From positions 12,586,001-12,650,000 of the forward strand of contig OX597829.1 of NCBI GenBank assembly GCA_951406725.2: 64,000 bases of DNA, read 5' to 3'. The notes below the pieces were generated by a model. It worked only from the letters and a program-made list of their open reading frames with translations, ran no database searches and was not told the DNA's origin. The stretch's first letter is position 1; each line of letters opens with the position of its first letter. Below are positions 12,336 through 50,964 of the stretch, piece by piece. A program made the translations under genes and the position numbers. The DNA comes from Octopus vulgaris (lineage: Eukaryota).

Positions 12336-12656
12336 GACGGACGTGTTGTCACCTCGGCTCCGAAGGTAATCATTTATTTTGACTATTTATAGCCCAATTT
12401 TTGTGTACATTTTTGTAAATAAGGTGTGTAAGGCACCCAACTTTCGTTTGAGTGCTTTTCGAAGAGAGGAATTCGCCCCTAGGGGCAGTTTCAACCCTAT
12501 TTAATTTGTGTATTTTTTTCTCGACATTTCGAAAATGTCGAGAAATTGTATTGTAGAACGCTGGTCGCGTTCCTTTATCGACCAACATTCTCCTAGTCTG
12601 GTAACGCTAGGAGAAGAAAAAAGAACTCATGCACGCAAAGTGCAAACCTAAATGAC

Positions 12657-14519: not shown

Positions 14520-14816
14520 GTCAAACAGCAACATAACTGAAAACGACATAAAAACAAGTAACCACCCACGCACACCACCCCCACAACACATTAAAATAAT
14601 ACACGTAACCCAGAACACATACAGCACCTGAAATCTCTTTACTCTGATGCAGTAGGGAGATTTCAAAAGTATTCATCAAAGAAACTATACAAAAACCTCA
14701 TGGAAGAAGACTGTGAGGTGAAAAACAAAGGACTTTCGAACAACAAGTAACCTTTTCTCTCTCTCTTTCCTTTTTTGCACTTTCTTTTCGTGTGTAAAAC
14801 ACAATTTTATCGGAAC

Positions 14817-17800: not shown

Positions 17801-18249
17801 GACACGGTTTCAGACACACTGGACCGACTTGCCCGAGATGCGGTCAGAGCGACGAAACCGTTCTGCACGCACTCGTGCAATGTCCAACCATTTCAGACCT
17901 GTGGGCTTATGCCGAACGGCTGCTGTCACGTGTGGGACGAATCCGCCTATCGGCCGAGTCTGTCGTGTGAATAGCTCCGCCCCCTTCCCTCAACCGGGAA
18001 GGCAAGGCAGTTTTCATCGTACTGGTGGCCATGGTGAAAGAATGTGTGTGGTGGACCCGAGCGAAAGGATTAGAGACAAACACTTACCTCTCTGGCCAGT
18101 CGCTCATCAACTTTTTCAAGTACCACTTGAAAAGGAAGGTGATAATGGAGAGGGAAGTTTTGTCTCGCGAAAGATTAAAAAAAAGATGGGTGAATGTTGC
18201 AAAGATGGTGCGTGCGAGTGACGAAACTATTTTGAGCATGATCCTGTAG
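14817..18249 (+). pseudogene. Disrupted ORF2 (APE endonuclease, RT, C-terminal Zn finger)
   Basis: MLRIGSINVRGL, VYAP, GDWN, YWKLN, KSPGLDG, FRPITLLNADFKIL, LDQSKAFDRV, RQGCPLS, YADD, CPRC..ETVLHAL..C; several stops and frameshifts. Confidence 0.9.
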
Positions 18250-18586
18250 ATCGTGAAAAAGAAAGAAAGTGAGCATTTTGATCTCATGTGGTTATTTCCT
18301 CCCTGACTGAGGTTCCCGTGGTCTTTTCTGTAGGCTTTTCTTCCCACGGATGAACCCAATCTTGTTTTATCAATGTTTTTATTATTATTTCTGTGATACA
18401 CGATTTCTTTTCTTTTTTTCCTCCTCTCGATCCCTTTTGATCGCAATCTTACATTTATTTTCTTTTTTTCCACCCTCGAAAAGAAAAGCTCTGCATATGT
18501 ATTTGTCCCCTCTGTATTCAGCCCTGTGTGGCTAATAAAAGAAAGTTATCTATCAATTTGTCTGTCTGTCTATCATCTATCTATCT

Positions 18587-21500
18587 CGATCGAAAGTATT
18601 CACTGACAGACCGGCTCCTAAGTCAAAACCTTTTTTTATTGTGTTTTTGAAAAAGTTTCGTGTCAACTTTTGCACATGGAGTGTGTAAGACACCCAGCTT
18701 TCGTCTGGGTGGGTTTTTCCGGAGGGGATTTTGCCCCTAGGGGCAATTTCAGCCTCGATTATATATCAAAACTTTTGATTAATAGCTTGTTTTCACACAA
18801 TGTCGCCGAAGCGTTCCTCATAACGCGTAGACGCTGTTCTTTCTCTCTCGTTTGCATCCATTTGTTTGCACTTTACATTTTCGGAGTTTTTCAACTTTTC
18901 AAACGCCCAACTTTCGTTTGGGTGTTTTTCAAATGTAGAATTCGCCCCTTGGGGCATTTTCATCAATTGATTTTTATTTTTCTAAAAAAAAAATGTCGAG
19001 AAATTTTATCGTAGAACAATATTCTACGATTTTTTCTAAAGAGGATTTCCCTGTTTTGGAAAAGACAGTCAACAAAGACGCTGATATAAAGAAAAATAAA
19101 ACTGAAATCAACACCACCACCACCACCACCAACATCAAAGCTACCATATCTGATAGAAATAACACTGACACAACAACCGTTAACAACAACAATAACAACA
19201 AAAATGAAGTAAATATAAATGTCCAGAATGTAACGATATCTGCTGCCACGGCTTTCGCTTCTGCCACTGACACCACCGCCAACTCCAACAACAATAACAA
19301 CAATAACAACAACAACAATTCCTTTCAGACCTTGTTTCCTCCAACACCAAGAACTGAAGGAGAGAGACAAAAGACCGCGACCACCAAACGAATTGCCGAA
19401 AGCTACTCAAACGCAGGGAAAAATTATGCAAGCAATTTTCCACCCCTTCCTACTTGCACAATCAAACATCAGACACCAAATACACCGAATTTACCAACTG
19501 CAGCCAACAACATCACCACCAGCAACAACAATAACAAAACAACAAATTTCGCCGAGGCGATAAAAGAAAAAAAGACAACAGTATCTTTTACTGCACAACA
19601 GATAAAAGATACCAAAACTTTAATAACTAAAGAAAATGGCAAAGTAAAAATAAACATACCACAACAAATACTAGAAAATGAAAAAAAGAAAACCATTATA
19701 TATAAAATAATCAACAACAAAACAAAAGTCCAGAAAAGGCGAACACAAACAAAATCGAAAAATGCTTGCAACCTATCTGGAATTTCAAAGAATATGTGAC
19801 CTGGTGGAACAAATTTGCGCACATACAAGTAGTTTTCCACACTGAAGAGTTAGCAAAACGACTCTCAACGCTATCTCTTCATTCGGATGAACTCACTATG
19901 ATACCTAGCTACCATGGACAGAGAGTAACTAAGGTCATATTAAACAATGTTCCACAAATAGCGGACACTCTATGGCTAACATCGGCCATATGTGTGGAAA
20001 TGAACGATTTTAACATGCTACAAACTACGGTCACTGAACACAAAAACTGGGTGGGAAAAAGAGTAGAAATTCTGCTACACATCGACCAAGATGCCATCAA
20101 CAAAATACCCACCCAGATATATATATCAGAAGACCACAAGTTGTATGTGGTCGCCGAAGGCAGGAGACCACGCTGCTACATATGCGACAGTGAGCAACAT
20201 CTAAAAAAAGACTACAAATCTGCCGCAAGAAAACAGCAGCAACAACAACAGCAGCCGGAAAAAACAAAAAAGCCAGCTTTATTACCCACACAACAGTTTG
20301 CACGAACAATAAAAGAACCGGTCAAAGAAAATCAACAAGAAACAAACCTACCCAACCAAACAACATCAACAGCAACAACAAAAGAGAAACCAACTCCCAA
20401 ACCAAGAACATCTACCAAAAAGACAAGCATCGAAAATAAAGAAGCAATTACTATTCCAAATGCCCCAAAACACACACCCCAAACACCACAACAATACCAA
20501 CAAAAACACAAACACAAAATACCCACACATCACCTCCAAAACCCATACATCACACCCTAACGCTCACCAACCAACACCAACAACAAAGTCAGCACAGCCA
20601 AAAATAGACCGGAATACTTTTCCCCTCCCACTCTCTGATTCCTCTGACATGTCATTAGATGAAGAAGACACAAAGGATTGGCAAATAGCCACAGGGGGAA
20701 GGGGAAAAGGGGAAAAAAAGAATAGAAAAGCTAACAAACAAAGCAGGAAGATTCACCACTCCCGAAACAAAAACATCCACAGAAAACGAACACATCAACA
20801 CAAACACACTATCACCAAACCCCCCAACAATGTCGACAGCCATAAATACAAACAATCACGACCTAATGGAATACATTAGGTCAAACACCGACATAACTGA
20901 AAACGATACAAAAACAAATAACCACCCACGCACAATACCACCACAACACATTAAAATAATACACGTAACACAGAACACACACAGTACCCTGAAATCTATC
21001 TACCCTGATGCAGTTGGGAGCTTTCAAAAATATTTATCAAAGAAACTTTAAAAAAACCTCATGGGAGAAGACTGTGAAGTGAAAAACAAAGGACTTTCGG
21101 ACAATAAGTAACCTTTCTCTCTCTCTTTTTTCTCATCTTCTTTTCGTGTGTAAAACACAATTTTTTATAGGAACATGCTCAAAATAGGCAGTATAAATGT
21201 ACGTGGCTTGGGGTCGCCTTGGAAACAAGGCTACCTGTTAAACGACATCAAGTCACTAAATCTGCATATCATAGCCATCAGTAAGACCAGACACCGCAGC
21301 TCGTGGGCACTCCAGCACATGTTCGGCACACATTTCAACATTTATTTTTCTCCGTGTCTACCGAGAATGGGCGGAGGTGGCACCGCGGTGCTTCTCCGGA
21401 AGAGTCTGGATCTCAAAGTAAGAGCAATTTTCCTAGACCCGGAGGGTAGGCTGGTCGTTTTGGATGTCGATGGCAGCAATGAGTTTGCTTTTCGACTGAT

Positions 21501-23259
21501 AACAGTTTATGCACCGTCCTTAACAGGCCGACCAAATTACTTTCGACGTCTAGAGTCTTTCATGGGAACGTCTCGTCCTTTACTTTTAGTGGGGGATTGG
21601 AATGCCACCTGGACACGCATCTAGACTACGTGGGAAGAGATAGCAATAGGAGGGGATGCAATTGCCTCAAAGACCTGCTCAGACGTTGCCAACTATCTGA
21701 CAGGTGCCGACTGGACCACCCGAATGTGCTGATGTGGACATGGAGTAACCGCATCGGGTCGTCCAGATCGTACTTAGATAGAGTATTCTGCAGGACAATA
21801 GATAAAAATAGTGTAGGTTGTCCACAATTTCATATAGTCAGTTACACAGATCACAAGTCTGTGACTTGTACACTTGACTTAGATAAGACACATAGCAGAA
21901 TCAATCGGGTACAGTAAAGCCCTAGATTTAGACCGAAATAGAATAGAGGGAGACTTAGTTAAGAGTTTAGAAGAGGCATTTAGAAATGGCATCGCGTCCA
22001 ACGTACTGGCAGCGAGGTTGGCCCTCGACCAACACCTCAACGCCAAACACGAAGGATGCGTTGTCAGAGCTAGGATGCGTGCTCTGAGGAATGAAGGAGT
22101 TGGAGCCACCCAAGAATCCCGAGTGGTGGAGACACAAAGAGGCAACAGAGACACCATCAAGTCTCTTACAGATGAACAGGGGCGCGAATTGCTCGAGCCT
22201 AAAAGGATGTGTGAGGCTTTTCAACAACACTTCACCCAACTGTTTGGGACAAGTGGTGGGTCAGAACGCAGAGTAGACTTTAGTGCCTACCTGCATGCCT
22301 TGTCACGACTCTCAGCAAGGCGGAGTCTTGTGAAAGGCCTATCACAGCTGCGGACGTACAGGATGCGATGGCAGGCTGCGCGAGAGACAAGTCACCAGGC
22401 TTGGATGGTCTGCCCTGCGAACTTTATTTTCATATGCCAGACTTGTTTGGATGCTTCTTGGCAGCTGTCTACTGCAACTGGCAGCAAAACGGGAGTATCC
22501 CTGCTTTTGTAAAGCGAGGAGCAGTGGCACTGACGGAGAAAGATCCAAACAAGGGGGACGTAATAGATAATTTCATCACTCTGCTCAACGCAGATTTCAA
22601 AATTTTGGCCAAGGTATTAGCCGAGAGGTTGGAGCTTGTCATCAAGAAACTAGTCGACAAGGCGCAAGCATGCGCCGTGCCGGGTAGAAGTATTCATTGC
22701 AACCTCCATCTGATGCGCTACATCATAGACAGGGTAGTCAAGAATCCTGGCATGGGTGGGGCGCTGATCAATTTGGATCAATCAAAAGCTTTCGATAGGG
22801 TAGACCATCACTACTTGGAGGCTGTCCTTAAAGCGGCTGGTTTCGGTCCAGTTTTCCGCGGTTGGATCGCTGCCTTATAAGCGGCATCCGCTCAGTAGTT
22901 CGCGTAAATGGTCATCTATCCAGACCTTTTAACATCATGCGTTCGGTTCGTCAGGGATGTCCCCTCTCATCGCTTCTGTATGTATTGACTCTTGAGCCAC
23001 TACTGCGGAAACTGGCACGCTGAGGGGCATCCCACGAGAGCTGGGATGCGGGAGGAGCGTGTCTGCATACGCGGACGATGTCACCATCATAGTGTCGAGC
23101 TACCAGCACATCGAGCTGGTCGGCGAGACACTAAAAGAATACGAAGCGGTAACGGGAGCAAAAATTAACCGGGAAAAGTCAGTAGGCTTGCGGCTCGGCA
23201 CCTGGAGAAGCAGGCCCATGCCGTCCAACAGCGTCTCCATTGTGGGACGCTGGACCGAC
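18587..23259 (+). mobile_element. Tx1/L1-clade LINE copy 2 (ORF1 18993-20879 frameshifted; ORF2 from 21175, broken off after RT)
   Basis: Collinear with copy 1; starts right after TATC/TGTC units; about 146-bp deletion near 21893. Confidence 0.9.
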
Positions 23260-25446
23260 AGAAGCGCCTACCTGACCGACCTGCCGCGGCTCTTGACAAG
23301 GGAAGCGGAGTGTTGTGAAAGTCCCATCACAGCCGCTGACGTGCGGGATGCGATGGCGGGCTGCGCGAGGGATAAGTCGCCTGGATTGGATGGTCTACCT
23401 TACGAGCTGTATTGTCAAATGCCAGACTTGTTTGGCGACCTCTTGGCATCAGTCTGCTGCAACTGGCAACAAAACGGGAGAATATCCGGTTTCGTGAGCC
23501 GAGGTGCAGTGACGTTGCTGAAGAAAGACCCAAACAAGGGGAATTTTATAGATAATTTCAGGCCCATCACTCTGCTCAACGCAAATTTGAAAATTTTGGC
23601 CAAAGTAATAGCCGAGAGGTTGACGCTTGTCATTGGTAAACTGGTCGACAGGGCGCAAACATGCGCCGTGCCGGGCAGAACCATACATGACAACCTCCAT
23701 CTGATACGCTACATTGTGGACAGGGTAGTTAAGGATCCTGGCATGGGTGGGGCGCTGATCAATTTGGATCAATCTAAAGCCTTCGATAGGGTCGACCATC
23801 GGTACTTGGCGGCCGTCTTCAGGGCGGCTGGCTTCGGTCCCGTCTTCCGCGGTTGGATCGCTGCCTTGTATAGCGGCATCAGATCGGTGATTCGGGTGAA
23901 CGGTCACCTGTCGAAACTGTTTGACATAATGCGTTCGGTCAGTCAGGGGTGTCCCCTGTCGGCGCTTCTGTATGTATTGACTCTCGAGCCGCTACTGCGG
24001 AAGCTGGCGACACTGTGGGGCATCCCACGGGAACTGGGTTGCGGGACGAGCGTGTCGGCATATGTGGACGATGTCACTGTCATAGTGCCGGGCGAAAAAC
24101 ACATCCAGATGATAGGCGAGACACTAAGAAAATACGAAACGGTGACGGGAGCGAGAATTAACGCGGAAAAGTCAGTGGGTTTGCTACTCGGAACCTGGAG
24201 AAGCAAGCCCATGCCGTCCGACTGCGGCTCAGTAGTGGGACGTTGGACGGACGGACCGGTTAAATTGCTCGGGGTCTGCTTCAATCCGGACCTCCAAATG
24301 GATAAAAACTGGGACGAGATCACGAGTAGAGTGGTCGCTCTCAGCCAAACATGGGCCGAGAGAAGGCTGTCTCTAAAAGGTCGGGCGGAGGTGGCGAACG
24401 CGTATATCGCATCCGTCATCAATTACCGCCTGACCGTCTTGCCTTGTCCCGACGCTACCATCACCAAACTGGAACGCATACTCTTCCGCTTTCTGTGGAA
24501 GGGTGGCGTTCCGATGGTGAGGCGGTCCATTTGCTGTCAACATCCGTTAAATGGAGGACTGGGTATGCCGTGGTTGATGATGCGCAGGCATGCGTTGAGA
24601 CTGCGACATCTCTGGAACTTCATCGATGACGGTGAACAGGTGTGGGCGCCGTTTGTGAGGCGTGCCTTCCCGCAGCTCGGATCACTGACGGAACTGCAAA
24701 CGTGGATCAAGAAGAGACTGAAACTGGGCGATTGGCACCGAGAGTGTCGTCAAGCTCTACAGCAGCTCTACCGTCCGGGCTCAAACTTGTGCAACTTACA
24801 AACGACTAAAGCGTTCTATAGAGGACTAGTGGAGGGGAGGTCCGACGACACACTCGGGGCAAACCTGGGCGTCGACGAAAAATTCCTAACCTGCTCTTTC
24901 AGGACGACGTTCGGGCCGGGGCGTATAGATAACTTCCAGAGATCCCTGGCTTGGCAATGTTATCGAGACGCACTACCCGTTCGAGAGAAGAGCTACAGGC
25001 ACGGTTCGAAAACTACCACCGGACCGACCTGCCCGAGATGCTGTCAGAACGACGTAACCGTTCTGCACGCACTCGTGCAGTGTCCAGATATTTCAGAGCT
25101 GTGGACCTTCGTCGAACAGCTGTTGTCGCGTGTTGGACGGGCCCGCTTATCGGCCGAGTCTTTCGTGAATATTGTTCCACCGCCTTCCTTTAAACGGGAA
25201 GGGAAAACGGTTTTCGTTACGCTGATGGCTATGGCGAAAGAATGTGTGTGGTGGACGCGTTTGAAAGGACTGCAAACAAACACCTTCCTCTCTGGTCAGT
25301 CTCTCGTCAACTTTTTCAAGTACCACAAAAGGAAGATGAGAATAGAGAGGAAGGCTTTGTCGAACGAATGTTTTAATAAAAGGTGGGTAAAAGTGGCAAA
25401 AATGGTCAGTATGAAAGACGACACTATTTTAAGCGTAAATCTGTAA
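23059..25446 (+). CDS. Chimeric 795-aa frame: end of copy-2 RT fused in frame to copy-3 RT and C-terminal domain
   Basis: Contains SAYADD at the start and a second complete RT (SAYVDD); junction VGRWTDR|SAYLTDLPRL. Confidence 0.8.
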   Translation: MSAYADDVTIIVSSYQHIELVGETLKEYEAVTGAKINREKSVGLRLGTWRSRPMPSNSVSIVGRWTDRSAYLTDLPRLLTREAECCESPITAADVRDAMAGCARDKSPGLDGLPYELYCQMPDLFGDLLASVCCNWQQNGRISGFVSRGAVTLLKKDPNKGNFIDNFRPITLLNANLKILAKVIAERLTLVIGKLVDRAQTCAVPGRTIHDNLHLIRYIVDRVVKDPGMGGALINLDQSKAFDRVDHRYLAAVFRAAGFGPVFRGWIAALYSGIRSVIRVNGHLSKLFDIMRSVSQGCPLSALLYVLTLEPLLRKLATLWGIPRELGCGTSVSAYVDDVTVIVPGEKHIQMIGETLRKYETVTGARINAEKSVGLLLGTWRSKPMPSDCGSVVGRWTDGPVKLLGVCFNPDLQMDKNWDEITSRVVALSQTWAERRLSLKGRAEVANAYIASVINYRLTVLPCPDATITKLERILFRFLWKGGVPMVRRSICCQHPLNGGLGMPWLMMRRHALRLRHLWNFIDDGEQVWAPFVRRAFPQLGSLTELQTWIKKRLKLGDWHRECRQALQQLYRPGSNLCNLQTTKAFYRGLVEGRSDDTLGANLGVDEKFLTCSFRTTFGPGRIDNFQRSLAWQCYRDALPVREKSYRHGSKTTTGPTCPRCCQNDVTVLHALVQCPDISELWTFVEQLLSRVGRARLSAESFVNIVPPPSFKREGKTVFVTLMAMAKECVWWTRLKGLQTNTFLSGQSLVNFFKYHKRKMRIERKALSNECFNKRWVKVAKMVSMKDDTILSVNL

Positions 25447-25731
25447 CCAAAAGAGACAACGAGAAGTAAGGTGACTTACTCATGTGTTCATTTTCGAACT
25501 GTCTGAGGTGACCTTGGTCTTTTTTGTAGGTTTTTCTTTCCAAGGCTACACCTAAACTGTGAACTTTATTTATATTGCTTTTTTATACACCACATAACCC
25601 ACAGATCCCTATTGATCGAACGTTTGTTCTTTGTGTGTCCCACCCATCCCACCTCGAAAAGAAAAAAAAACTCTACATTGTATTTCGTCCATTTTTTCTG
25701 TGTTTAGCCCTGTGTGGCCACAATAAAAAGT
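23260..25731 (+). mobile_element. Tx1/L1-clade LINE copy 3 (diverged subfamily, 5'-truncated)
   Basis: Open RT to C-terminus; 3' end GCCCTGTGTGGCCACAATAAAAAGT followed by (TATC)n. Confidence 0.9.
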
Positions 25732-25751
25732 TATCTATCTATCTATCTACA

Positions 25752-25837
<86 letters not shown>

Positions 25838-25850
25838 CCTATCTATCTAT
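25732..25850. repeat. (TATC)n microsatellite
   Basis: Direct reading. Confidence 0.95.
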
Positions 25851-26130
25851 ATAGAACTAAGAATGTGTGTCTGTCTGTGTTTCTGCCCGTATGCATGTGT
25901 GCATCACAAAAACTTGAGACTACCCGACCAATTTCATTCAAATTTTTATACATTCACTACATAGGGTCCAAGAGTGTCATGGGTCACACAATTGTTCAAC
26001 TTCTTACCTCATCTGAGCTCGGAGCAATCTCTTAGACGGTTTCGGTATTACGTGCCAAAGGTGAGGCAATAACATCTCTGTTTTAATGTGAGATAATAGT
26101 TTCAGTTTTAATAATTTCACTACTAATACT
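25845..26130 (+). mobile_element. Possible non-autonomous Helitron 5' end
   Basis: TCTATATA...GTGTGTCTGTCTG...ACTAC.CGACCAATTTCATTCAAATTT layout resembles invertebrate Helitron 5' ends. Confidence 0.35.
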
Positions 26131-26139
26131 TTCACTGTA

Positions 26140-26890
<751 letters not shown>

Positions 26891-26977
26891 ACTCTACTCT
26901 TCCAAATATGGGTACCATAATAGCTAGACTTAATAGTAAAAATATATAGTTAGCTAGAGATAGAATAAGTAGTAGCA

Positions 26978-27036
26978 ACAATAATAATGGTAATAATAAT
27001 AATAATAATGATGATGATAATAATAATAATAATAAC

Positions 27037-27076
<40 letters not shown>

Positions 27077-27087
27077 TCAATAACAAT

Positions 27088-27160
<73 letters not shown>

Positions 27161-27192
27161 TCAATAACAATATTAATAATAATAATAATAAT

Positions 27193-27269
<77 letters not shown>

Positions 27270-27270
27270 G
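26978..27270. repeat. (TAA)n microsatellite
   Basis: Direct reading; includes a duplicated ATCAATAACAATATT variant block. Confidence 0.95.
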
Positions 27271-27477
27271 ATTATCTCTGGTCGAACACAACTTCTCTAT
27301 TCACAAACAATACAGAACAGCCCTTCCTTAATTTTTCTTAAGCAGACATTTGAACTTTTTTTGACCAAAAAAAAAATAAAATAAAAAAATAAATAAAGAA
27401 ACATCACTGATGATGTGATGATGGTGATGATGATAATAATGATAGTAATAATGCTGATAATCTATCTATCTATCTAC

Positions 27478-30400
27478 ACACACCCACATACACACTCACA
27501 GAGTTCAGCCAACACAATCCTCACCTCGGCTCTTTAGATGTTAACCAAATATGAAAGTATTATTTGACAGGCAAGAATTCTGGCGTTGAAGACAGCCAGC
27601 CAGCCAGCCAACGAGACAGATAGACACTACTGTGGTGGTGATAATGATAAAAAAAAAACAAAACAAAAATAAGAATAATAAGATACTGCTGTGACTACAC
27701 ATAAAACAATATCATTGATGATGATGATGATGATGATGGTGATGATAGTAGTAGTGGCGATAATGATAATAGTGATAATAATGGTGATGATAATAACAAT
27801 AATAAGCCGACTACGGCTGCTATAATGGTACGATTATAATTGTAACGGCAATGATGGCCGTCTCCCCACGAGCCAATCAAAGCTAAAAAATGATAACATT
27901 ATCGTAGCACCAAAATGTTTTTTGGAAACTAAAAGGAAAACTAAATCAGTATACCAAATCGCTTGTGTTATGGATAATCTGGAAGCGCGTCCCCCAGGGA
28001 AGAGCCAGCCTGGGAACGAAAAGTCATCAACTGGCACAAACTCTTCTCCGAATACGGACATGGATGGTCACTTGAACGGGAAATTCCCCAACTCGAGCCC
28101 TCCAAGTTCACCACCACAACCACCACAGAAAGAAAAATGTAAGCGGAACAAATGGACCCGTGAAGAGTATAAAGAAGTAATATACGCTTATTACTATGCA
28201 TTAGGTCGGCCATCTCAAGAGAGACACACCGCAAACTCTTACAGTATATGGAGAACACGGAATCAAGACAGTAGGCCCTATTTGGACGAGAACAAATTGG
28301 CATATGTGAGGAGGGATATCCTTAGAAATAACAGACTCACAGACAGTGAAATAAGCGCGATCAAGCACGCAACGGAAAATGACATAAATATAAGACACAA
28401 AGGAAATGAAGAATCAGATGAACAGTATAGCCCGCCACGCGGCTTAATTGAAAGACTGCCATCTGACCAAAGTACGCAAAGGCCTGAAGATACAAGAAAT
28501 TCTATTGAACCTGTTAAAGATAGCCAGGAAAAGATAAAACAACAGTAACTGAAGATCTCGCATTTGCTGAAGAACACAGAGAGTCTATGGCAGAAATGAG
28601 GCAGAAAATCCTGAATACACTTGAAGTTGTAAGACATACAAGTATCAATGATAGAGAACCACTTCATAAACTCTCAAATACAAACCAAAATAAAAAACAA
28701 ATCCAAATTGGCAACTATGTAACAAATGAAATAATACGAGAATTAAAACCTGATTTTACTGAGTTAAATGAAATTATTTACGCTTCTACTAGGACAATTG
28801 AAACCAGCTGTATGCTCCCGAAAAAACAAGGAAAACAAAACCTGGGAAGAAATCAAACCTGGAGAAGTAAAATTGAAAAAGAGATTGAATTTATGAGAGG
28901 GGAAATATCAATATTAAATGAACTAATATGTGGAAATGATGTAAGATCCAGAACAGGAAGAAGGATGAAGAGAAAATTTGGATCCTCACCAAGAGAAGAA
29001 CTGATATCAATAAAAGAAACGCTGAAACAAAAAGTCCAAGCAAAAGCCCAAAGAATACGAAGATTTGAGAAGAGAAACAAGATTTACAAGCAAAATAAGC
29101 TGTTCACATCCAATGCCAAAAAATTCTACAGAGAAATAGGGAAGGAGAAAGTAACCGTTAAAGACCCCCCTCCCATGGAAGAAGTTCAAAACTTTTGGAA
29201 AAGGATTTGGAGTGACAAGAAGACGTACAACACAAATGCAGACTGGATTATACAAACTGAAGAATCCTACCAAAATTTACAGCAACAAGCATGGGAAGAC
29301 ATCAAAATAGCAGACCTAAGAAAGGCACTCACGAAGGTCCCATAATTCGAAATCCCCTGGTAAAGATAGGGTGCCGAATTTCTGGCTCGCATCGCTCCCA
29401 TGCGCACACGGTAAGCTAGTTCAGCTGCTCAATGGAATTATGAGAGACCCAAAGAAAACACCTGAATGGTTAGCAAGTGGTATTACCTACCTACTCCCAA
29501 AGAATAACGAAACCAACCTTCCAAAAAACTATCGGCCTATAACCTGTCTATCCACCATGTATAAAATCCTAACATCTATCCTGGCGGAGAAAACATATGC
29601 ATTCATGGAGAAGAACGATATTTTCCCCATTGAACAAAAAGGGTGCCGCCGAGGCTCATACGGATGCAAAGATCAACTGCTAATTAATCGTATGATCCTT
29701 GAGAACTGTCACAACAAGCGCAGAAATCTCAGCTCCGCATGGATTGACTATAAAAAGGCCTTCGACAGTATACCGCCTCCATGGATCTTGAGATCGCTGG
29801 ACATCTTCAAAATTTCCCCTGTGATTTCAAACTTCCTGAAGCATAATATGTCGTTGTGGAATACGAATCTCCAATTATATCACTCTAATGGAGTACTTGC
29901 CTCAGAAAATATAAACATCAACTGTGGAATTTTTCAAGGTGACTCACTTTCACGTTTAATATTCTGCATAGCCCTAATACCCCTTACAAGTGAATTAAAC
30001 AGAACAGGGTATGGGTATAAAATTGCCAATAAAAAAATAAGCCATCTATTTTATATGGATGACTTAAAACTCTATGGTAAAGACAATAATGAACTTGAAG
30101 GCCTATTGCGCACCGTGAAAGCATTCAGCGATGACATCGGGATGGAGTTTGGATGAGAAGTGTGCCAAGGCCACTTTCCAGAAAGGGAAAGTGAAGACCA
30201 CAAATTCAGTCGTGTTAGATGTTGACACAGTCATAAGAGAGCTTGAGCAAGAACAAACATACAAATATTTAGGGATAAATGAAGGCTTTGGTATTCAGCA
30301 TGCAAGCATGAAAGAGAAGATCAGGAAGGAATGTTATAGGAGAGTTCGTGCAGTCCTGAAATCTGAACTAAATGCATGTAACAAGGTGTTAGCTATAAAT

Positions 30401-31775
30401 TCCTTAGCAGTTCCAGTTGTTACTTATAGCTACAATGTGTTGAACTGGAATATGAGTGAAGTAAAGAATATAGATAGGAAAATACGCAAGCTGCTGAGTC
30501 GTAATAGGATGCACCACCCAAAGACAGACATAGATCGCCTTTACCTTCCCAGAGCCCAAGGAGGTCGAGGCCTGATCCAATTTGAACTAGCTTACAAAAC
30601 AACCACAATTGGACTGGCCAAATATCTCGAAATAACGAATGACTGGATGCTAAAGCTCGTGGAAAATCACGAGAGACGAAAGAAGCTTCATTCTATCATC
30701 AAGGAAAGCAAAAAATTTGCTATTGATCTCGTGCAGGATACCCAAACTGAACAACCCGAGGGAAGTACGGCAACTATTGTTGCAAAGAAGGTGAAAATAA
30801 TGGCAACGAAAAAAGCGCACGAGCAATTGGCTGATAGGTGGGAGGAGAAACCTCTGCACGGCAAATATGTGACCCGTAGCAAACAAGCTGATGTTGACCA
30901 GAAGCAAACCCATCAGTGGCTACGGAGCTCAGGGCTAAAAGCAGAGAACGAAGGTTTTATCCTGGCTGCTCAAGATCAAAGCGTATTAACCTGGAACTAC
31001 CAGGCCAATGTGATGAAAAATGGAGCAGACCCCAAATGCCGATTCTGCAATGACATGATTGAAACAGTGGACCACCTAATCTCTGGATGTAAAGTCTTAG
31101 CACCAGTGGAGTATAAATTAAGACATGACAGAGATGGCCAATATCTCCACTGGCTAATAAGTCGGCATTACAATATCAAAACTGCCGACAAGTGGTATAA
31201 TCACCACTCTGAAGCTGTAACTGAAGGCGAAAATGTAACGATTCTGTGGGACTTTCCAGTACATACAGACCGAACCATCAAAGCCAATAAACCAGATATT
31301 GTTGTGAAAGACCAAAACAATAAAGTTTGCTTATTGATCGACATGAGCATCCCCTGTGATCATAATATTTCGGCGAAAGAGTTTGACAAGCTCAGAAAAT
31401 ATAAAGACCTGCTCATTGAAATTGAGAAAATGTGGCATCTCAAGGCGGTTACAATACCAGTGATCGTAGGAGCACTAGGAATGATCAAGAAGGGAACCGA
31501 AAATTATATGAGAATGATCCCTGGCTTACCATCCCTGCAAGAAGTGCAAAAGATTGTCTTAACTGGTACATCACACGTATTGAGAAGAGCATTGTCGATG
31601 TGAGAGCTGTTACTGCCCATGTATTTTAATTTAACCTTAAAAAAGAAAAAAAATGAACGAACTATTTAGTTTGGTTTAATGGCCTACCAATGTATACTAT
31701 GAGTTTCTTTGCCCTAGGAGTCGGGAAGACGCTCGGCAAGAAATGGAAGCAAATTTGAAAGAAGAAGAAAAAAAT
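27478..31775 (+). mobile_element. Near full-length R4/Dong-like RLE LINE, copy A (ORF about 27922-31603, frameshifted)
   Basis: Myb-like KWTREE N-terminus, YRPITCL, QKGC, WIDYKKAFDS, YMDDLKL, CRFC..ETVDHL..C, RHD, KPDIVV..LIDMSIP, KLRKYKDL; ends in A-run and (TAA)n. Confidence 0.93.
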
Positions 31776-31819: not shown

Positions 31820-33770
31820 TAACATTAATATAAATAGTGATAATGACAACATCAATGATACAGATAATAAAATAAAAATGTGGTATGTGAGGGAAGTGAG
31901 AATGGATTAATAACTAGCAACCCCAATTTACATAACAATATAACTACTGTTAGAGTAAATAACTCTAATACTAATAATAGCTCTAGTAAGGAAAATGAAA
32001 ATGGACTGTCCCTAAATAATACTAATACCATGAATTACCCCCCCCCAGCTGTAATTGTAGAATGAAATCGAATTGTCCGGTATCTGGCCGCCGTCTGGTC
32101 GAAAATATAACTTATAAACGTTCAGTAATAGCTGTCTTTATTTCGGTTGTTCGGTGGATCTAAAAAAACTTTTAAACAATCATTTTTTCTCCTTTAGGCT
32201 TAAACACAAGGCAGGTTGCACAACACTGTGCAGTAAAATTTGGGAACTGAAAAGAAATAATATAGAATTTAACCTGAAATGGGATATATTAAGGAAAGCA
32301 CGGCCTTATAAAAATAGTAGAGATGGTTGTGAACTTTGTTCTATGGAAACATTTGAGATTTTAAAACATAGGAATAATACAAATTTGTTAAATAACCGTT
32401 CTGAACTAGGAGAATCCTGCATACATCGCACAACCCATACGTTTAAATATTTTAAATAATAATATTGTGACCATTCCTAAATTTTCAAATTCTAATTATT
32501 TATAACTAAATAAGAATGTATATACCATACTAGCTTTTATTCAACATGCACAGATTGCTAAAAAAGCTTCATTACATATTTAGAATTAAATTTCTATTTT
32601 TCTGATAATCTCCTATATTAAATAGAAAAAATTCTATGTCTCTAAAGAAACTACTCAGTTCATCTTGATTACCTCAGTTCCATTTTTTAATATATTATTG
32701 ACCCTGGATATTTTTACCTAACTGATTAGTTTTTCTCCGCGAGTAGTAAATATTATGTCTATTAGATTCTTTAATTTAATTCATTAATTCATTAAATCAC
32801 CATCTTCTAAATCTAAGAAAATTACACTTCTTGATTACTTCCCTTCCTTTTAATGAATCACTATCAACTAAATCTAAGAAAATGACTCATCTTGATTACT
32901 GCTCTTCCGCTTTTTCTAATATATATTATTAACTCCTAATATATTCACTTAATTAATAAGACGTTTGTCCATAGTTATTGAATATTATGCCTACTCATAA
33001 TAAATGATAGGTTTTTTCTCCAAAATTTAATAAATATTAGATTTAAATTTCTCTTTTAATCCAACTTAAAATAATCAACACCTACTGGCCAAGTATAATC
33101 TTATATATTAAAGCGGGTGCATATTTGTGTATGTTTGTATAAGTGTAAAAGAATTTCTATAACTATTTAGTATATAGATGGTCATTGTGACCATCTAGCA
33201 TTGACCTAGTTTTCTTGATACAAAATCAGATTGCCAAATGGGAGGATACAGCCTCTAAGACAATATGACCCCCTTCCACTTTAATTTCTTTAGGAATAAC
33301 TTCTGACATTTATTTCACCCCTATCTATGTCTATAAATAGAAAATCTCTTTTGTCTCCATTCAACAGAATATCCCTCCCAACTTTCTAGCAGTTCAATAT
33401 AGCTTAAAGAAAATTCTTCAGTCAGAAGATAAATTCTATTACCTTAATGTTCTTAACATTCAAATCAACATCTCTGTCTATATATCTACCCTCTTTTTAA
33501 TGTTATCAATTAACATGAAAATAAGTATATGTATTGATGGAAAACCTCTATAAATGGCTGATGATAGCTCAACATTTTAAAACTGTTGTAATTCTTACAA
33601 TGTTTAATAAAATGATGTAGCGTGAAATGATCGTACCAAATTACCGAAGATATTCTTGTTGCTTATTTTGATTATAATCACCCCGTGGATTTATATGGAT
33701 AACACCGTACAAAATTCTGGTGCGTCTGACTTAAGTACCATATTCATTTGAATCTAAATTTTGCTGAACG
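31810..33770 (+). mobile_element. Penelope-like element 3' portion: Asn-rich linker, Cys motif, GIY-YIG remnant, long 3' region with hammerhead
   Basis: CNCRMKSNCPVSG near 32050; ORF 32154-32459 TTLCSKIWELK..LKWDIL..ARPY..GCELCSME..LLNNRSE..C.H; hammerhead at 33555. Confidence 0.75.
33555..33638 (+). ncRNA. Type-I hammerhead motif with long stem II
   Basis: TGG/CCA stem I; CTGATGA; extended hairpin GCT..CATTTTA..TTGTAA/TTACAA..TAAAATG..AGC; GAAA TGATCG TA. Confidence 0.65.
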
Positions 33771-33814
<44 letters not shown>

Positions 33815-34146
33815 GAGACTCCCTTTGGTCCCAAAGGACCATGGGATTGCACATAGAGATTTACCCTCCGAGGCACAATTCCGGGCAAAGTTATTTATGG
33901 AAACCAGCAGTCGCCCATACATACCAGGCGCCCTCTCCACCCCACCGATGTCATCCAAGGGAGAGGCAAAGGGACCGATACAGTTTGGGATCAGTGAATA
34001 GCAGCTCATTTCTACAGATGAGTGAGCTGGAGCAATGTGGAATAAAGTGTCTTGCTCAATAATGCCACATGCAGACCGGTCCGGGATTCGAACTCACAAC
34101 CTCACGGTCGTAAGCTCGTCGCTTTAGCCACTGAGTCATGCGCCTT

Positions 34147-34150
<4 letters not shown>
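33815..34150 (-). mobile_element. tRNA-derived SINE (family 3)
   Basis: Minus strand head GGCGCATGACTCAGTGG...GAGTTCGAATCCC with A and B boxes. Confidence 0.75.
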
Positions 34151-34177
<27 letters not shown>

Positions 34178-34439
34178 CATATATATAAAATTTAATAAGG
34201 GTAGAAATCGATATTAATCAATTAAATCCAGTGGCCTAGCATATTAAAAAGAAATCCGAAGATTAAAATATTTTTACATACAAAATTTAAAGGACAGACC
34301 ACTAAAAGTGGACGTTCAACATGCTATTTTCCAAATCGCTATTTTCCACAAAGAATGTGTCCTCAAATAAAAACCCAGCACGAACCAAAGCATTAAAAAT
34401 AAGCAAGACAAATGAAAATATATGAAATAAAATGATTAC

Positions 34440-34506
34440 CTATGTACCGATCAGTTTCGATTGTTATTATCCACGCATGTGGATACCTGCAATCTCATCA
34501 GCATAG
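34440..34506 (-). ncRNA. Type-I hammerhead ribozyme (mirror copy)
   Basis: Reverse complement of 34534-34600. Confidence 0.85.
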
Positions 34507-34533
34507 TCAGTCATATAGAAATACAATGACAGA

Positions 34534-34600
34534 CTATGCTGATGAGATTGCAGGTATCCACATGCGTGGATAATAACAATCGAAACTGATCGGTACATAG
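34534..34600 (+). ncRNA. Type-I hammerhead ribozyme, canonical core
   Basis: CTATG-CTGATGA-GATTG..(TATCCAC atgc GTGGATA)..CAATC-GAAAC-TGATCG-GTA-CATAG. Confidence 0.88.
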
Positions 34601-34812
34601 GTAATCATTTTTATTTCGTATATTTTCATTTGTCTTGCTTATTTTTAATGCCTTGGTTCGGGCTGGGTTATTATTTGAGAACATATTCTTTGTGGAAAAT
34701 AGTGACTTGACGTCTATATCTAGCATGTTGAACGTCCACTTTTAGTGGTCAGTCCTTTAAATTTTGTATGTACCTATATATATATGCACACACATATTCT
34801 ATATATATATAC

Positions 34813-34849
<37 letters not shown>

Positions 34850-34915
34850 CTATGTATATGTATATACATATATATATATACATACTTATATATTTACATA
34901 CATATATATGTATAT

Positions 34916-34946
<31 letters not shown>

Positions 34947-34991
34947 ATGCTATATACACATGCATATATACATGTATGCATAGAAATCTAT

Positions 34992-35062
<71 letters not shown>

Positions 35063-35099
35063 TACTTCTTTTTAAAGCAGCAGAAAATATAGCAAAAAG

Positions 35100-35137
35100 C
35101 TGTTACTCGGAGTCTCACGTTCCCGTTCATCGGACAG
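35100..35137 (-). ncRNA. Minimal hammerhead variant (U4C; GAAA mutated to GAGA)
   Basis: Minus strand CTGT-CCGATGA-ACG(GGAA)CGT-GAGAC-TCCGA-GTA-ACAG. Confidence 0.6.
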
Positions 35138-35215
35138 TTTTGTTCAGCGTATTATTCTCTGTCTGATATTTGAGTGCTCTTCTTTCCACCTTCTTCCCAT
35201 TTATGTGCTTAATCC

Positions 35216-35258
<43 letters not shown>

Positions 35259-35261
<3 letters not shown>

Positions 35262-35560
35262 GGTGATCACCGTGACCGATCAGGCTACCAGATGTTGCTA
35301 CACATCGCTGGTCACAATGCGCTTCGCATTGTTTTAGCCTTCAAATGACGCCTGGCTAAGCGAGCAGGTCAACAGAAGAAAGAATGAAAGAAAGTTGTGG
35401 CGAAAGAGTACAGCAGGGATCGCTACCACCCCCTGCCGGACTTCGTGGAGCTTTAGGTGTTTTTGGTCAATAAACACTCTCAACGCCTGGTCTGGGAATC
35501 GAAACCTCGATCCTACGACCGCGAGTCGGCTGTACTAACCACCGGGCCATTGTGCCTCCA
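35259..35560 (-). mobile_element. tRNA-derived SINE
   Basis: Minus strand head TGGCCCGGTGGTTAG...GGTTTCGATTCCC. Confidence 0.72.
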
Positions 35561-35573
35561 TACATACATACAG

Positions 35574-35663
<90 letters not shown>

Positions 35664-35669
35664 ATATTT

Positions 35670-35965
35670 AAATAATAAGGGAGATAAATTGAATATTAAT
35701 TTAATTAATATCAATTTCAAACCAGTAGCCTAGCATACAAAAATCTGAAGAATCAAAGAATTCTAATACATGTGCATATATTTAAAGGGCTAAAAGACCA
35801 CTATTTGATCGGCCATATGCTAGAAGTAGATCACCTGCGATCAAACTACAAAGAAAGGAATGTTCTCTAGAGAAAAATTCAGCGTACACCAGAAGAATAT
35901 GCGGGCAAGACAAATGAAAATTATATAAAAAAACAAGAATTAATCGCCGACCTAGGTTTCGCCTA
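35670..35965 (-). mobile_element. Relative of the 34190-34506 repeat with a half hammerhead
   Basis: Shares AATAAGGG, CCAGT.GCCTAGCATA, AGACCACTA blocks; minus strand GAAAC-CTAG-GTC at 35949-35960. Confidence 0.6.
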
Positions 35966-36273
35966 TTACCGAATGAATCTAAGACCAATTTATATTATTA
36001 CTTACCAATGATGCTATAATTAAATAAACAATAATTAATGTTCAAAGCCTTTGCAGACCAAGGACTAGAGTCGTAAAATAACATATTCTCATTTACATAT
36101 TTAAGATAAAACACTAAATTTTAGGCATAGAAACGACAGGAATACTACTAATGAATCTTAATAATAAAATGGTTGAATACAACATTCGAAAATCATAAAA
36201 TAGGGTACAATATATATTGAGTTTCAGTGTTGACTAAATCTAGGAAAATAATAAGAAAACCCTGCCTTATCGA

Positions 36274-47999: not shown

Positions 48000-50964
48000 A
48001 TTGTCCCTTTGGTTAAGAATAATGTTGCATTACCTTTACGAAACTCTTTCCCTTAAAAATAAAATCCACTAGATTTATACAGTTGATATTTCGAATTACT
48101 ATTCGTCATTTCCCCTATTTTGCTTAACAAAACTTTAATATACACCCGTCGGGCATAGATATCATTCTGGCTGCAAGGACGAGCTTCATCAATTACGATG
48201 ATCAAAATTGGGTAAGGACTGATTCCACAGGCCTATTCGATATAATGATGGGATTGTCAAACTCAGCGCAGATTACGGATTTAGTGGGCTTGTATCTCCT
48301 CGAGAAAATAAAATGTAGCTTCCCTAATCTCTATGGGGATTTATATAGGGACGATATTAACTTCAAAGTGGCTAATTTCCTCGATGTAACGTTAGACTTG
48401 AACACCAAACTTTTCTACCCATACCGAAAACCAAATCAGTCCTTCTAACATATCAATGTTTCGTCTAATCACCCTAGCTCTACTATTAATAGCATTGTAA
48501 TTGCTATCTCTATTAGGGTGTCAAATCTATCCGCTAACGAGGAAATCTTCAATCAACACACCCCTATATATAATAATGCCTTGAAATTAAGTGGGTTTAA
48601 TAAAAGTATCTACTATATACCAGATACTAAATTAATATTGATCCTAACAATAGCATAGGTATAAGCAAACTAGGTCAATTAAATGATACTAGCATAAATC
48701 AACCGTATATTAAATGCTTTAGACCGAAAAATCATAGGTATCATAATAATCATAATAATTGTAAGTATAAACCTCCTACTGCCGAGACTTCTAATACAAT
48801 TAGAAAGTCTAAATCCAGAACATGTGAAGTTATTTGATTTGCTCCTCCTTTCTCACTTAGAGTTAAGAAAATACTTAGATTATTTTTTAAAATCCTACAA
48901 TCGAACTTCCCAAAGCATCACAAATATTACGCCATTTGTAATAAATCTACTGTAAAATTTTCGTACTCGGTAATGCCTAATTTGGGAACAATGATAGTTT
49001 TTATAAATAGGAGTAAAATTAAATGTATAATGAATAGGGTCAACACTAGGGTGACTGATGAGAATAATTTAGGGAAATGACTATGTACTAGTGAAATTAA
49101 GGATATAGCTAAAAACAAGGACAACAATAGTGCAACTAATAATAATGCTTTAGAACTAGCACTACGTACTAACGGAAGTAAGTGTAATGTTAAAGTATCG
49201 ACCTTAAATACTAACGCAACAAATAATAGTCATCAAACTTTAATGTATTTAAAATCAGGGACCTTTCCAGTGTCGTACATTACTGCAAAGTGAAAATATT
49301 TGCTGATGACACTAAGCTCCTGCAAATCATCAATGAAGAAGCAGACCGAGCTCAACTCCAGTCTGATCTATATGCTGTGAGTCAATGGGCAGACAGAAAC
49401 AAAATGCAACTGAACGAGGGAAAATTTGAGCTGATGCATTTTGGAAGAAATTCCTCACTAAAACATCCATACTATCTTCCTTCAAGGGAACCGCTCACAG
49501 CCTCTATCAATATCAGAGACCTGGGTGTAATTGTTGATGACGATCTCAGTTGGAGTGCACACATCAACAATAAGGTCGATATAGCTCGTAGGATGAGTTC
49601 CTGGATCTTAAGAACTTTCCGGTCCAGAGAACAAAGTGTCATCATACCACTTTTCTCTTCCTTTGTACGGCCACACCTCGAATACTGCTGCCCACTGTGG
49701 TCTCCCCATACAAGACAAAACATCTCGAGGATTGAATCACCCCAGGGGGCACTTACTAAACGAATTGGAGGCATGGTTTCTCTCGATTATTGGGACCGCC
49801 TTAAAGCCTTGGAACTCTACTCTCTCCAGCGTCGCCGTGAGCTGTACTGCTGCCCACTGTGGCCTCCCCATACAAGACAAAACATCTCGAGGATTGAATC
49901 ACCCCAGAGGGCACTCACTAAACTAATTGAAGGCATGGATGCTCTCGATTATTGGGACCGCCTTAAAGCCTTGGAACTCAACTCTCTCCAGCGTCGCCGT
50001 GAGCTGTACATCATTTGTACGATGTGGAGAATATACCGCCAACTTTGCCCAAACGACCTGAACATTAGCTCCAAGGTTCATCCAAGACTGGGATCACGGG
50101 CCATACATCCCCTGCCCAATTCAAGATCACATCATACATGTACACTGCAACATAATTTCTTTTCCTCAACAGGCCCTGCCCTATTTAACATTGTCCCGAG
50201 GGAGATCAAAGAGGAAAAGGATCCCATCAACTTTAAACGGAGTCTGGATAGATTCCTTCAAGGAATACCAGATAAGTCACCCATAATTGGATACAACTCA
50301 CCCAACAAAAACTCACTACTTGAATGGACCATAAACAAAACTAGACTTAAACAGGATTTAGATAATCTTATCAGGTGGTGCTATTAAGTTAGACATAGTC
50401 TGGACCAATCTTTGGTCGAAACATATCTAAGTTTTATCTAAGTTTACCATATCCCAATCTAATGATATTAATAATGTTAGTAATATAGATAATAGTAGTC
50501 GCCACTGAATAATATTTCTAACTTCAGAGCCCCCAAAACCTGTCCGCTTCCAGTATCATGTCTTCGATACAGTGTTCTGTATAAATGTATTGTTAGCGTA
50601 CCCAATAGACAAAACAAGATATATATATATAGGTTGTATGATAGATTTCAAAAGGAGATATAGGGCCCATCTAGATTCCTTTTCAAACCCTAATTATAAG
50701 AATTCCACTACCTTAGCGGCATATATAAATAAAATTAGGGATAGTAACTTGCCTTATGAACTGCCATGGTCCATAATTGCGAGGGCTCCCTCATATGGTA
50801 CTGATTCAGACAGGTGTACATTGTGTATAAGGGAATTATATATAATCCTTAAATTATATAACGCTAATATATTAAATAAGTTTTCAGACGCGATCCGTTA
50901 CTGTTGCTATGAATTTCACCCTACATTTCTAAAACCTGTAAAATTAGATCTACTAGCAAACTGA
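48000..50964 (+). mobile_element. Decayed Penelope-like element (RT 48000-48640, Asn-rich linker, GIY-YIG 50572-50964) interrupted by a CR1/L2 insertion
   Basis: FDIMMG...AQITDLVGLYLL, LYRDD, NFLDVTLDL...PYRKPN, SNHP; YIG...FKRRY..H...TTLAAYI...C.LC..E...ILNK. Confidence 0.8.
49260..50446 (+). mobile_element. 5'-truncated CR1/L2-group LINE (ORF 49290-50387) with a 162-bp in-frame duplication
   Basis: FADDTKL, LQSDL, RDLGVIVD..LSW..HI, VRPHLEYC...WSP, SLQRRR, FKRSLDRFL; tail ATCTAAGTTT repeated. Confidence 0.88.

Follow-up and report, generated by a model that had tools for sequence, protein, structure and literature searches.

In Penelope-like retroelements (PLEs), excerpts from Craig 2021 (PMC8557442) describe inverted, 5′-truncated copies, a one-sided tail of 30–40 bp, and a bias toward microsatellites. 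Excerpts from Arkhipova 2013 (PMC3846280) report pLTRs inverted head to head, one shorter than the other, with an optional tail and micro-homology junctions, and contain a self-priming proposal; by the excerpted account of both papers, how PLEs build inverted ends is an open question. In the excerpted parts of Frangieh 2024 (PMC11167929), which treats the Anolis Poseidon element PAc, both strands are cleaved and extended, reverse transcriptase (RT) has two start sites, and uncleaved RNA is the main substrate. The hammerhead ribozymes of metazoan PLEs are presented in excerpts from Cervera and de la Pena 2014 (PMC4209133) as a dimer-dependent design that cleaves poorly in vitro; in Schistosoma, dual hammerheads lie on opposite strands 100–700 bp apart, and helix III is small and palindromic.

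Here, we analyzed a foldback carrying two hammerheads in a 64-kb window, the window being the whole stretch of DNA under study (Table 1). The foldback is very probably an ordinary dead insertion of the pLTR of a PLE, or of its non-autonomous derivative, in a TA microsatellite. Anatomy, family data, and the published pattern all support the original prediction, which had recognized inverted, truncated terminal repeats of the Penelope type. As in the EN+ PLE pLTR insertions described in the excerpts from PMC3846280 and PMC8557442, two unequal copies stand head to head, a 3′ tail is found on one side, the junction shows micro-homology, the target is a microsatellite and AT-rich, and a hammerhead lies inside the repeat. 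Unlike those insertions, the present one has no ORF between or beside its arms, its tail measures ~89 bp rather than the 30–40 bp described for PLE tails, and any target-site duplication, an optional feature of PLEs, is unreadable within the TA runs of both flanks.

Table 1. Coordinates of the foldback, its two copies, and their features in the 64-kb window
Feature	Position	Strand	Basis
TA microsatellite, left flank of the insertion	34150..34187	.	Sequence
Left copy: 3′ end of the family, 5′-truncated, bearing a hammerhead and a tail on one side	34186..34527	-	Family contigs, alignment
One-sided 3′ extension ("tail") of ~89 bp, missing from the right copy	34186..34274	-	Arm homology stops at 34275/34772; family cover
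Left-copy private mutation: 6 nt (34327–34332) in place of the family's 12	34323..34348	+	Sequence, family loose ends
Type I hammerhead, left copy; core 34501–34495, predicted cut after 34445	34440..34506	-	Motif scan, fold
Hairpin loop ("spacer"), upstream part of the left copy	34515..34527	-	Family cover flat to 34527
Right copy: shorter, 5′-truncated, without tail, inverted partner	34526..34772	+	Alignment, BLAST
Type I hammerhead, right copy	34534..34600	+	Motif scan, fold, family variants keeping pairing
Change private to the right copy: two substitutions plus loss of 1 nt versus the family form	34703..34707	+	Right arm versus family loose-end consensus
TA-rich microsatellite, right flank	34774..35065	.	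Sequence

Aligned with each other, the arms (34275–34514 and 34526–34772) span 247 columns, comprising 227 matches, 13 mismatches, and 7 gap columns in 3 runs; arm against arm, BLAST returned 91.5% (E = 1e-98), and overall identity is ~92%. A foldback with arms of ~240 bp, as originally described, is therefore borne out. The same holds for the identity of the arms across the 67-nt ribozyme, which lies within a run of 80 nt without any difference (34429–34508 and 34532–34611); a single mismatch (34509/34531) adjoins the hairpin loop. The reported non-matching block is present, at 34326–34338 versus 34703–34721. Of the limits first assigned to the foldback (34275–34772), those of the arms stand, but the left edge does not: family contigs carry the element ~89 bp further, to ~34186. 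BLAST of the window found no further near-identical copy of the arm within its 64 kb.

To place the arms within their repeat family, contigs of four public runs (X1, X2, X4, and X11) were aligned with 34180–34540 at 80% likeness. Part of this interval is contained in 20 of the 24 listed runs, under four organism labels. Three presumed DNA runs (two organism labels) yielded 1,424, 1,286, and 1,781 contigs, and X11, guessed to be RNA, yielded 72; the X11 pieces listed are other copies of the family, with 6–17 differences. The family is high-copy and piled up at its 3′ end. Summed depth peaks in the tail (34206–34231) and is >100-fold lower at the ribozyme (34479–34517). Contig depth is not to be equated with the number of copies, and the 3′ pile-up is inflated by sister subfamilies that have a different ribozyme. 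A sister subfamily, visible as loose ends behind 34438, has the same downstream part joined to a different, shorter palindromic helix III, which suggests that ribozyme variants were swapped or diverged within the family. Pattern scans for the ribozyme and the tail retrieved 0 loci from metagenome contigs, and the tail scan retrieved 0 from viral contigs. A search of the open-access literature found no paper describing the hammerhead of this family.

The same contigs define the limits of the left copy. They match it from ~34186–34193, where mixed AT-rich loose ends occur, through 34527, and the left copy therefore bears an extension of ~89 bp that is lacking in the right copy. Past 34527 the family goes on into other sequence, as seen in loose ends of 7 X2 contigs (agreement 0.98), and X4 record 32 extends 409 nt further upstream of the ribozyme; the 11-nt "spacer" thus belongs to the left copy. 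The two copies share 2 nt where they meet (34526–34527), and their 5′ ends precede core base C3 by 26 and 13 nt. In an end-motif alignment, a similar AT-rich motif opens both the tailed (34180–34200) and the tail-less (34275–34295) ends. A MITE or foldback DNA transposon was considered and rejected: the two ends differ by ~89 bp, and beyond the junction the family copies continue onward rather than reversing direction.

A diverged relative of the element lies nearby on the minus strand (35660–36075), with ~63% likeness over 240–300 nt. It has the same orientation as the left copy, ends in a microsatellite, and retains the tail, a remnant of the palindromic helix III, and a GUC site near 35960–35948, with no recognizable CUGANGA core. 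The AT-rich end motif occurs in it twice, at 35660–35685 and 35766–35790, as two alternative copying start sites might.

The arms could instead be inverted monomers of a non-LTR retrozyme, a short hammerhead repeat spreading via circular RNA. Like the animal retrozymes in the excerpts from PMC7229834, the unit is non-coding, ~250–340 bp long, and low in GC, with a type I hammerhead, and excerpts from 10.64898/2026.07.22.740005 propose retrozymes as PLE-related pLTR derivatives. Two other joints are listed for the family, one between opposite strands and one of the go-back type (222 nt, in X1 and X2), the latter being in keeping with a retrozyme. In the excerpted descriptions, however, retrozymes stand in head-to-tail tandem arrays that give rise to circular RNA, whereas this locus holds an inverted pair only. 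Moreover, the family sequence that precedes the ribozyme is not the 3′ end of the element itself, and X4 record 32 continues into it for 409 nt. We thus regard a retrozyme origin as quite improbable.

Comparison with the family also indicates on which arm each difference arose; the contig alignment covered the left copy and 14 nt of the right, with right-arm alleles judged via the left reference. At 34296, at 34361, and in the block, the right arm agrees with the family form, as it mostly does at 34423 (53–97%). Changes private to the left arm are found at 34296, 34327–34332, and 34361, and those private to the right arm at 34703–34707. The replacement of 12 nt by 6 in the left copy creates an 11-nt direct repeat (34323–34333 and 34338–34348) and is likely one slippage or template-switch event; family loose ends fall at the edges of this block, behind 34326 and before 34333. 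The left form of the block was recovered in one X1 contig (0 differences over 34297–34404, depth 44.4) and in none from X2 or X4. The non-matching block as a whole thus amounts to about two local events, one per arm. Minority alleles at 34315, 34375, 34382, 34467, and 34479 are common to both arms and point to one donor lineage. In total, ~11 mutational events separate the arms over 240 bp, as neutral decay would give.

These private changes also bear on whether the foldback is an artifact of assembly or sequencing, produced by a fold-back read or by separate copies misjoined through the identical 80 bp. No contig bridges the center, and depth is 0 at 34531–34540 in all four runs, as an artifact would have it, but such holes in cover prove nothing. 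The occurrence of private changes on each arm, which is impossible for a fold-back read, argues against this explanation, as do the clean 2-nt overlap at the junction and the perfect X1 match to the private left block. An artifact is exceedingly unlikely.

The original prediction further described a gradient of identity and saw in it a hint of selection or conversion near the center. Across the 67-nt ribozyme, the arms show 0 differences against 2.4–4.5 expected. For 0 differences in this pre-chosen stretch, P is 0.005 with all columns counted, 0.027 or 0.038 with the block counted as two events or one, and 0.059 when point changes are considered by themselves. Under the same countings, 80 identical nt in a row at any position have P values of 0.02, 0.12, 0.17, and 0.25. 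A comparison of identity with distance from the center, proposed alongside the gradient, was run and gave a trend with P = 0.04 for all columns and 0.25, 0.33, and 0.37 for the other countings. Across tests and countings, P ranges from 0.005 to 0.37; the gradient is marginal and compatible with chance, although some homogenization may have taken place.

Conversion would retain the same origin for the two copies but have the center homogenized later by hairpin-templated repair or template switching, keeping the innermost 80 bp identical. The difference-free ribozyme, the length of the longest identical run, and the predicted folding of the central 200 nt as DNA at ~−105 kcal/mol are in line with such a process. 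However, a run of this length arises anywhere with a P of 0.12–0.25 once the block is treated as one or two events or omitted, no distance trend accompanies it on those countings, and the mismatch at 34509/34531 directly adjoins the loop. Conversion would also predict ~1.8–2.6 central alleles private to both arms, and none appears among the 40 of 62 variant rows listed, a weak observation (P ~0.07–0.16). The distal part of the arm is in addition richer in homopolymer runs of at least four (7 versus 1 in the proximal part). We consider conversion possible but doubtful, and neither it nor selection is needed for the center: with the block as one or two events, P is 0.03–0.04 for the pre-chosen ribozyme, 0.12–0.17 for the 80-nt run, and 0.25–0.33 for the distance trend. 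The identical center is best read as mostly chance combined with slippage-prone distal sequence.

Scanning both strands of the 64 kb for the motif gave two perfect type I hammerheads and no more, one on each arm and strand, reading outward from the center. In all of six locally shuffled windows, there was no core with 0 or 1 mismatches, and one match in total at 2 mismatches. Both arms carry the invariant core elements CUGANGA, GAAA, and UH in the correct order, with an open helix I, and the helices comprise 5 bp (I), 5 + 7 bp (II), and 3 bp (III). In the right motif, helix I pairs 34534–34538 with 34596–34600, the core CTGATGA occupies 34539–34545, and GAA lies at 34582–34584. Its helix II pairs 34546–34550 with 34577–34581 and, in the inner part, 34555–34561 with 34566–34572; the palindromic helix III (34585–34594) leads to GUA at 34593–34595, with the predicted cut after A34595. 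The fold confirmed two details of the original description, namely, the nested TATCCAC/GTGGATA hairpin in stem II and the self-complementary stem III, ACTGATCGGT, with its G–U pairs. The description of both hammerheads as canonical applies to the core and not to the periphery, and no Rfam hammerhead model was matched either at the gathering score or at E ≤ 10; the length and two-part build of helix II probably account for this. Rfam miRNA and snoRNA models scored the hairpin far below gathering, and a miRNA was rejected.

The motifs resemble the metazoan PLE hammerheads in the excerpts from PMC4209133 in being of type I, with a 5-bp helix I, a long helix II, a G10.1–C11.1 pair, and a palindromic helix III suited to dimers, and Schistosoma provides comparable close pairs on opposite strands. 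They depart from the hammerheads of those excerpts in that helix II is in two parts (5 bp, a 4 × 4 internal loop, and 7 bp), no unpaired base stands between positions 9 and 10.1, helix III spans 10 nt with G–U pairs, and the two motifs are only ~40 nt apart. Helix III is predicted at +1.5 kcal/mol as a monomer hairpin versus −12.2 kcal/mol as a two-molecule duplex. The predicted minimum free energy structure is an alternative fold, 5 kcal/mol lower, in which the core pairs with helix III.

Variation within the family is informative about the ribozyme. Among the 40 of 62 variant rows listed, none alters any of the 12 invariant positions of the core and cleavage site (C3–A6, G8, A9, G12–A15.1, U16.1, and H17), and N7 varies. 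At paired positions, 10 of the 11 listed variants keep the pair, either alone or with the variant of the partner. A divergent contig (X11 record 13) has three double changes in helix II that preserve its pairing, the linkage being deduced from depth and distance-to-end values; it also breaks the 15.2–16.2 pair, the sole pair-breaking change (at 16.2) among the listed variants. This pattern of substitution makes the ribozyme appear to be under selection in the family as a whole. At the present locus, it is likely a passenger, since the arms of a read-through RNA would pair to form the hairpin, and cleavage there is predicted to be unlikely.

Folding predictions bear directly on the products expected from the locus. 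Read-through RNA is predicted to fold at −366 kcal/mol versus −258 kcal/mol with the hammerhead forced. The penalty for forming the hammerhead depends on the start of the transcript, being 5 kcal/mol from 34510 inward, 14 kcal/mol at 34500, and 104 kcal/mol from 34400 outward. In transcripts that enter from either flank, the antisense arm emerges ahead of the ribozyme, and forming the hammerhead is then predicted to cost ~104–109 kcal/mol relative to the hairpin. The original proposal that a single transcript yields both a self-cleaving RNA and a long double-stranded RNA (dsRNA) was not upheld; the two are predicted alternatives, one RNA being dsRNA or self-cleaving, not both. Because the ribozymes are on opposite strands, no single RNA carries the two of them and no dimer can form in cis.

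The same predictions can be set against the possibility that the locus is a functional hairpin gene, serving as an ADAR substrate or as a source of siRNA or piRNA, or else a selected, working pair of ribozymes. The 240-bp read-through duplex is predicted at ~−366 to −371 kcal/mol, both cores are intact, and small RNAs from PLE copies are reported for a rotifer in excerpts from PMC3846280. Against this, ribozyme and hairpin are predicted to be mutually exclusive for starts left of ~34500, and helix III is predicted to be favorable only between two molecules, with no partner in cis. Nearby ORFs that can be named are transposon pieces, with no host exon identified, and the mutational load of the arms is that of neutral decay. 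Either function is very improbable indeed. A literature search on Penelope with hairpin or siRNA gave nothing specific among the matches listed. Counts of A>G in X11 were not taken as a sign of editing, a reading that would call for matched DNA.

TA microsatellites flank the foldback on both sides, and the surrounding eukaryotic window is AT-rich and full of repeats. Nameable ORFs in the window are pieces of transposons, including non-LTR RT and endonuclease fragments at 14.9–30.2 kb and 57–59 kb and a hAT fragment at 36.5 kb. Over ~19 kb of the plus strand (12597–31603), same-strand pieces of non-LTR retroelements follow one another, with three RT-bearing regions and further fragments. A tblastn search with 150 PLE-like proteins returned a best E value of 0.48 within 33.3–37 kb and no PLE ORF joined to the arms; the search thus revealed no link between the foldback and an ORF, relics elsewhere in the window included, and its assignment to the PLEs rests on architecture. 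A 76-aa antisense frame of the right arm was rejected as a protein, with no homologue and only a weak Pfam match (E = 0.03).

Such relics include decayed RT and C-terminal GIY-YIG-like sequences on the plus strand at 32118–32459 and 48119–50964. The ORF at 32118–32456 has 2,590 relatives at E ≤ 0.001 in a HMMER search; 4 of 11 longer relatives match Pfam GIY-YIG, one above the cut-off, and in two long relatives an RT-like YRDD motif precedes the endonuclease. With these relatives as queries, tblastn matched 32136–32312, 48119–49059, and 50581–50904. Word-based protein searches with the two endonuclease-like ORFs retrieved nothing, whereas the HMMER search did match. The relic at 48–51 kb is interrupted by a 385-aa ORF (49230–50387), which we take to resemble the C-terminus of a LINE RT. 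The order of RT-like followed by GIY-YIG sequence in the window relics is presumably PLE-type. For reading this order as PLE architecture, excerpts from PMC8557442 provide part of the basis.

Several further repeats are found close to the foldback. Just 3′ of the GIY-YIG-like ORF, 32660–32993 holds short direct repeats (~60 and 107 nt, spacing 61 and 227) and no hammerhead. A third, degenerate hammerhead with 2 core mismatches (35133–35104) belongs to another repeat family (35066–35215, minus strand) and lies between TA runs. Judging by their box motifs, we presume that 33812–34150 and 35255–35560, both on the minus strand, are tRNA-like SINE copies; these putative SINEs flank the foldback beside the TA runs, the right one facing it, and ARAGORN found no tRNA. 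The flanking SINE sequences suggest a cephalopod host. A bacterial promoter scan gave matches at shuffle level, the bacterial model being irrelevant to this eukaryotic host.

Returning to insertion of a PLE pLTR, the following course of events would account for the anatomy of the locus. A PLE enzyme combining RT and GIY-YIG activities may have nicked the AT-rich target, and two copies of the element's 3′ end would then have been made from a single donor lineage, through either two-strand priming or fold-back self-priming. The first would have begun at the outer 3′ end and the second at the inner site; both would have halted just past the ribozyme, with micro-homology sealing the junction. Both copies hold the whole ribozyme, which suggests that the template was likely uncleaved RNA. 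This scheme has a counterpart in PAc, for which excerpts from PMC11167929 describe tailed and tail-less 3′ ends, an AT-rich target, and copying of the whole, uncleaved ribozyme. In those excerpts PAc is autonomous, with an ORF that starts inside the ribozyme, whereas the ATGs here reach stops within 11–17 codons.

A more elaborate version of the PLE origin can be formulated for the family. It would be a high-copy, PLE-derived family with two motif-marked 3′ start sites ~89 bp apart and a tendency to stop at the outer edge of the ribozyme; foldback centers would be kept identical by hairpin-templated repair, and read-through would both lock the ribozyme and supply dsRNA for editing or small-RNA pathways, through which the whole family would be silenced. 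We consider this combination very unlikely.

As a single locus, the foldback matters little, being one more case of a described PLE insertion pattern. The family offers more: with many copies, a long tail, and mapped junctions, it could separate fold-back self-priming from two-strand priming, and the same family could test the homogenization of palindrome centers.
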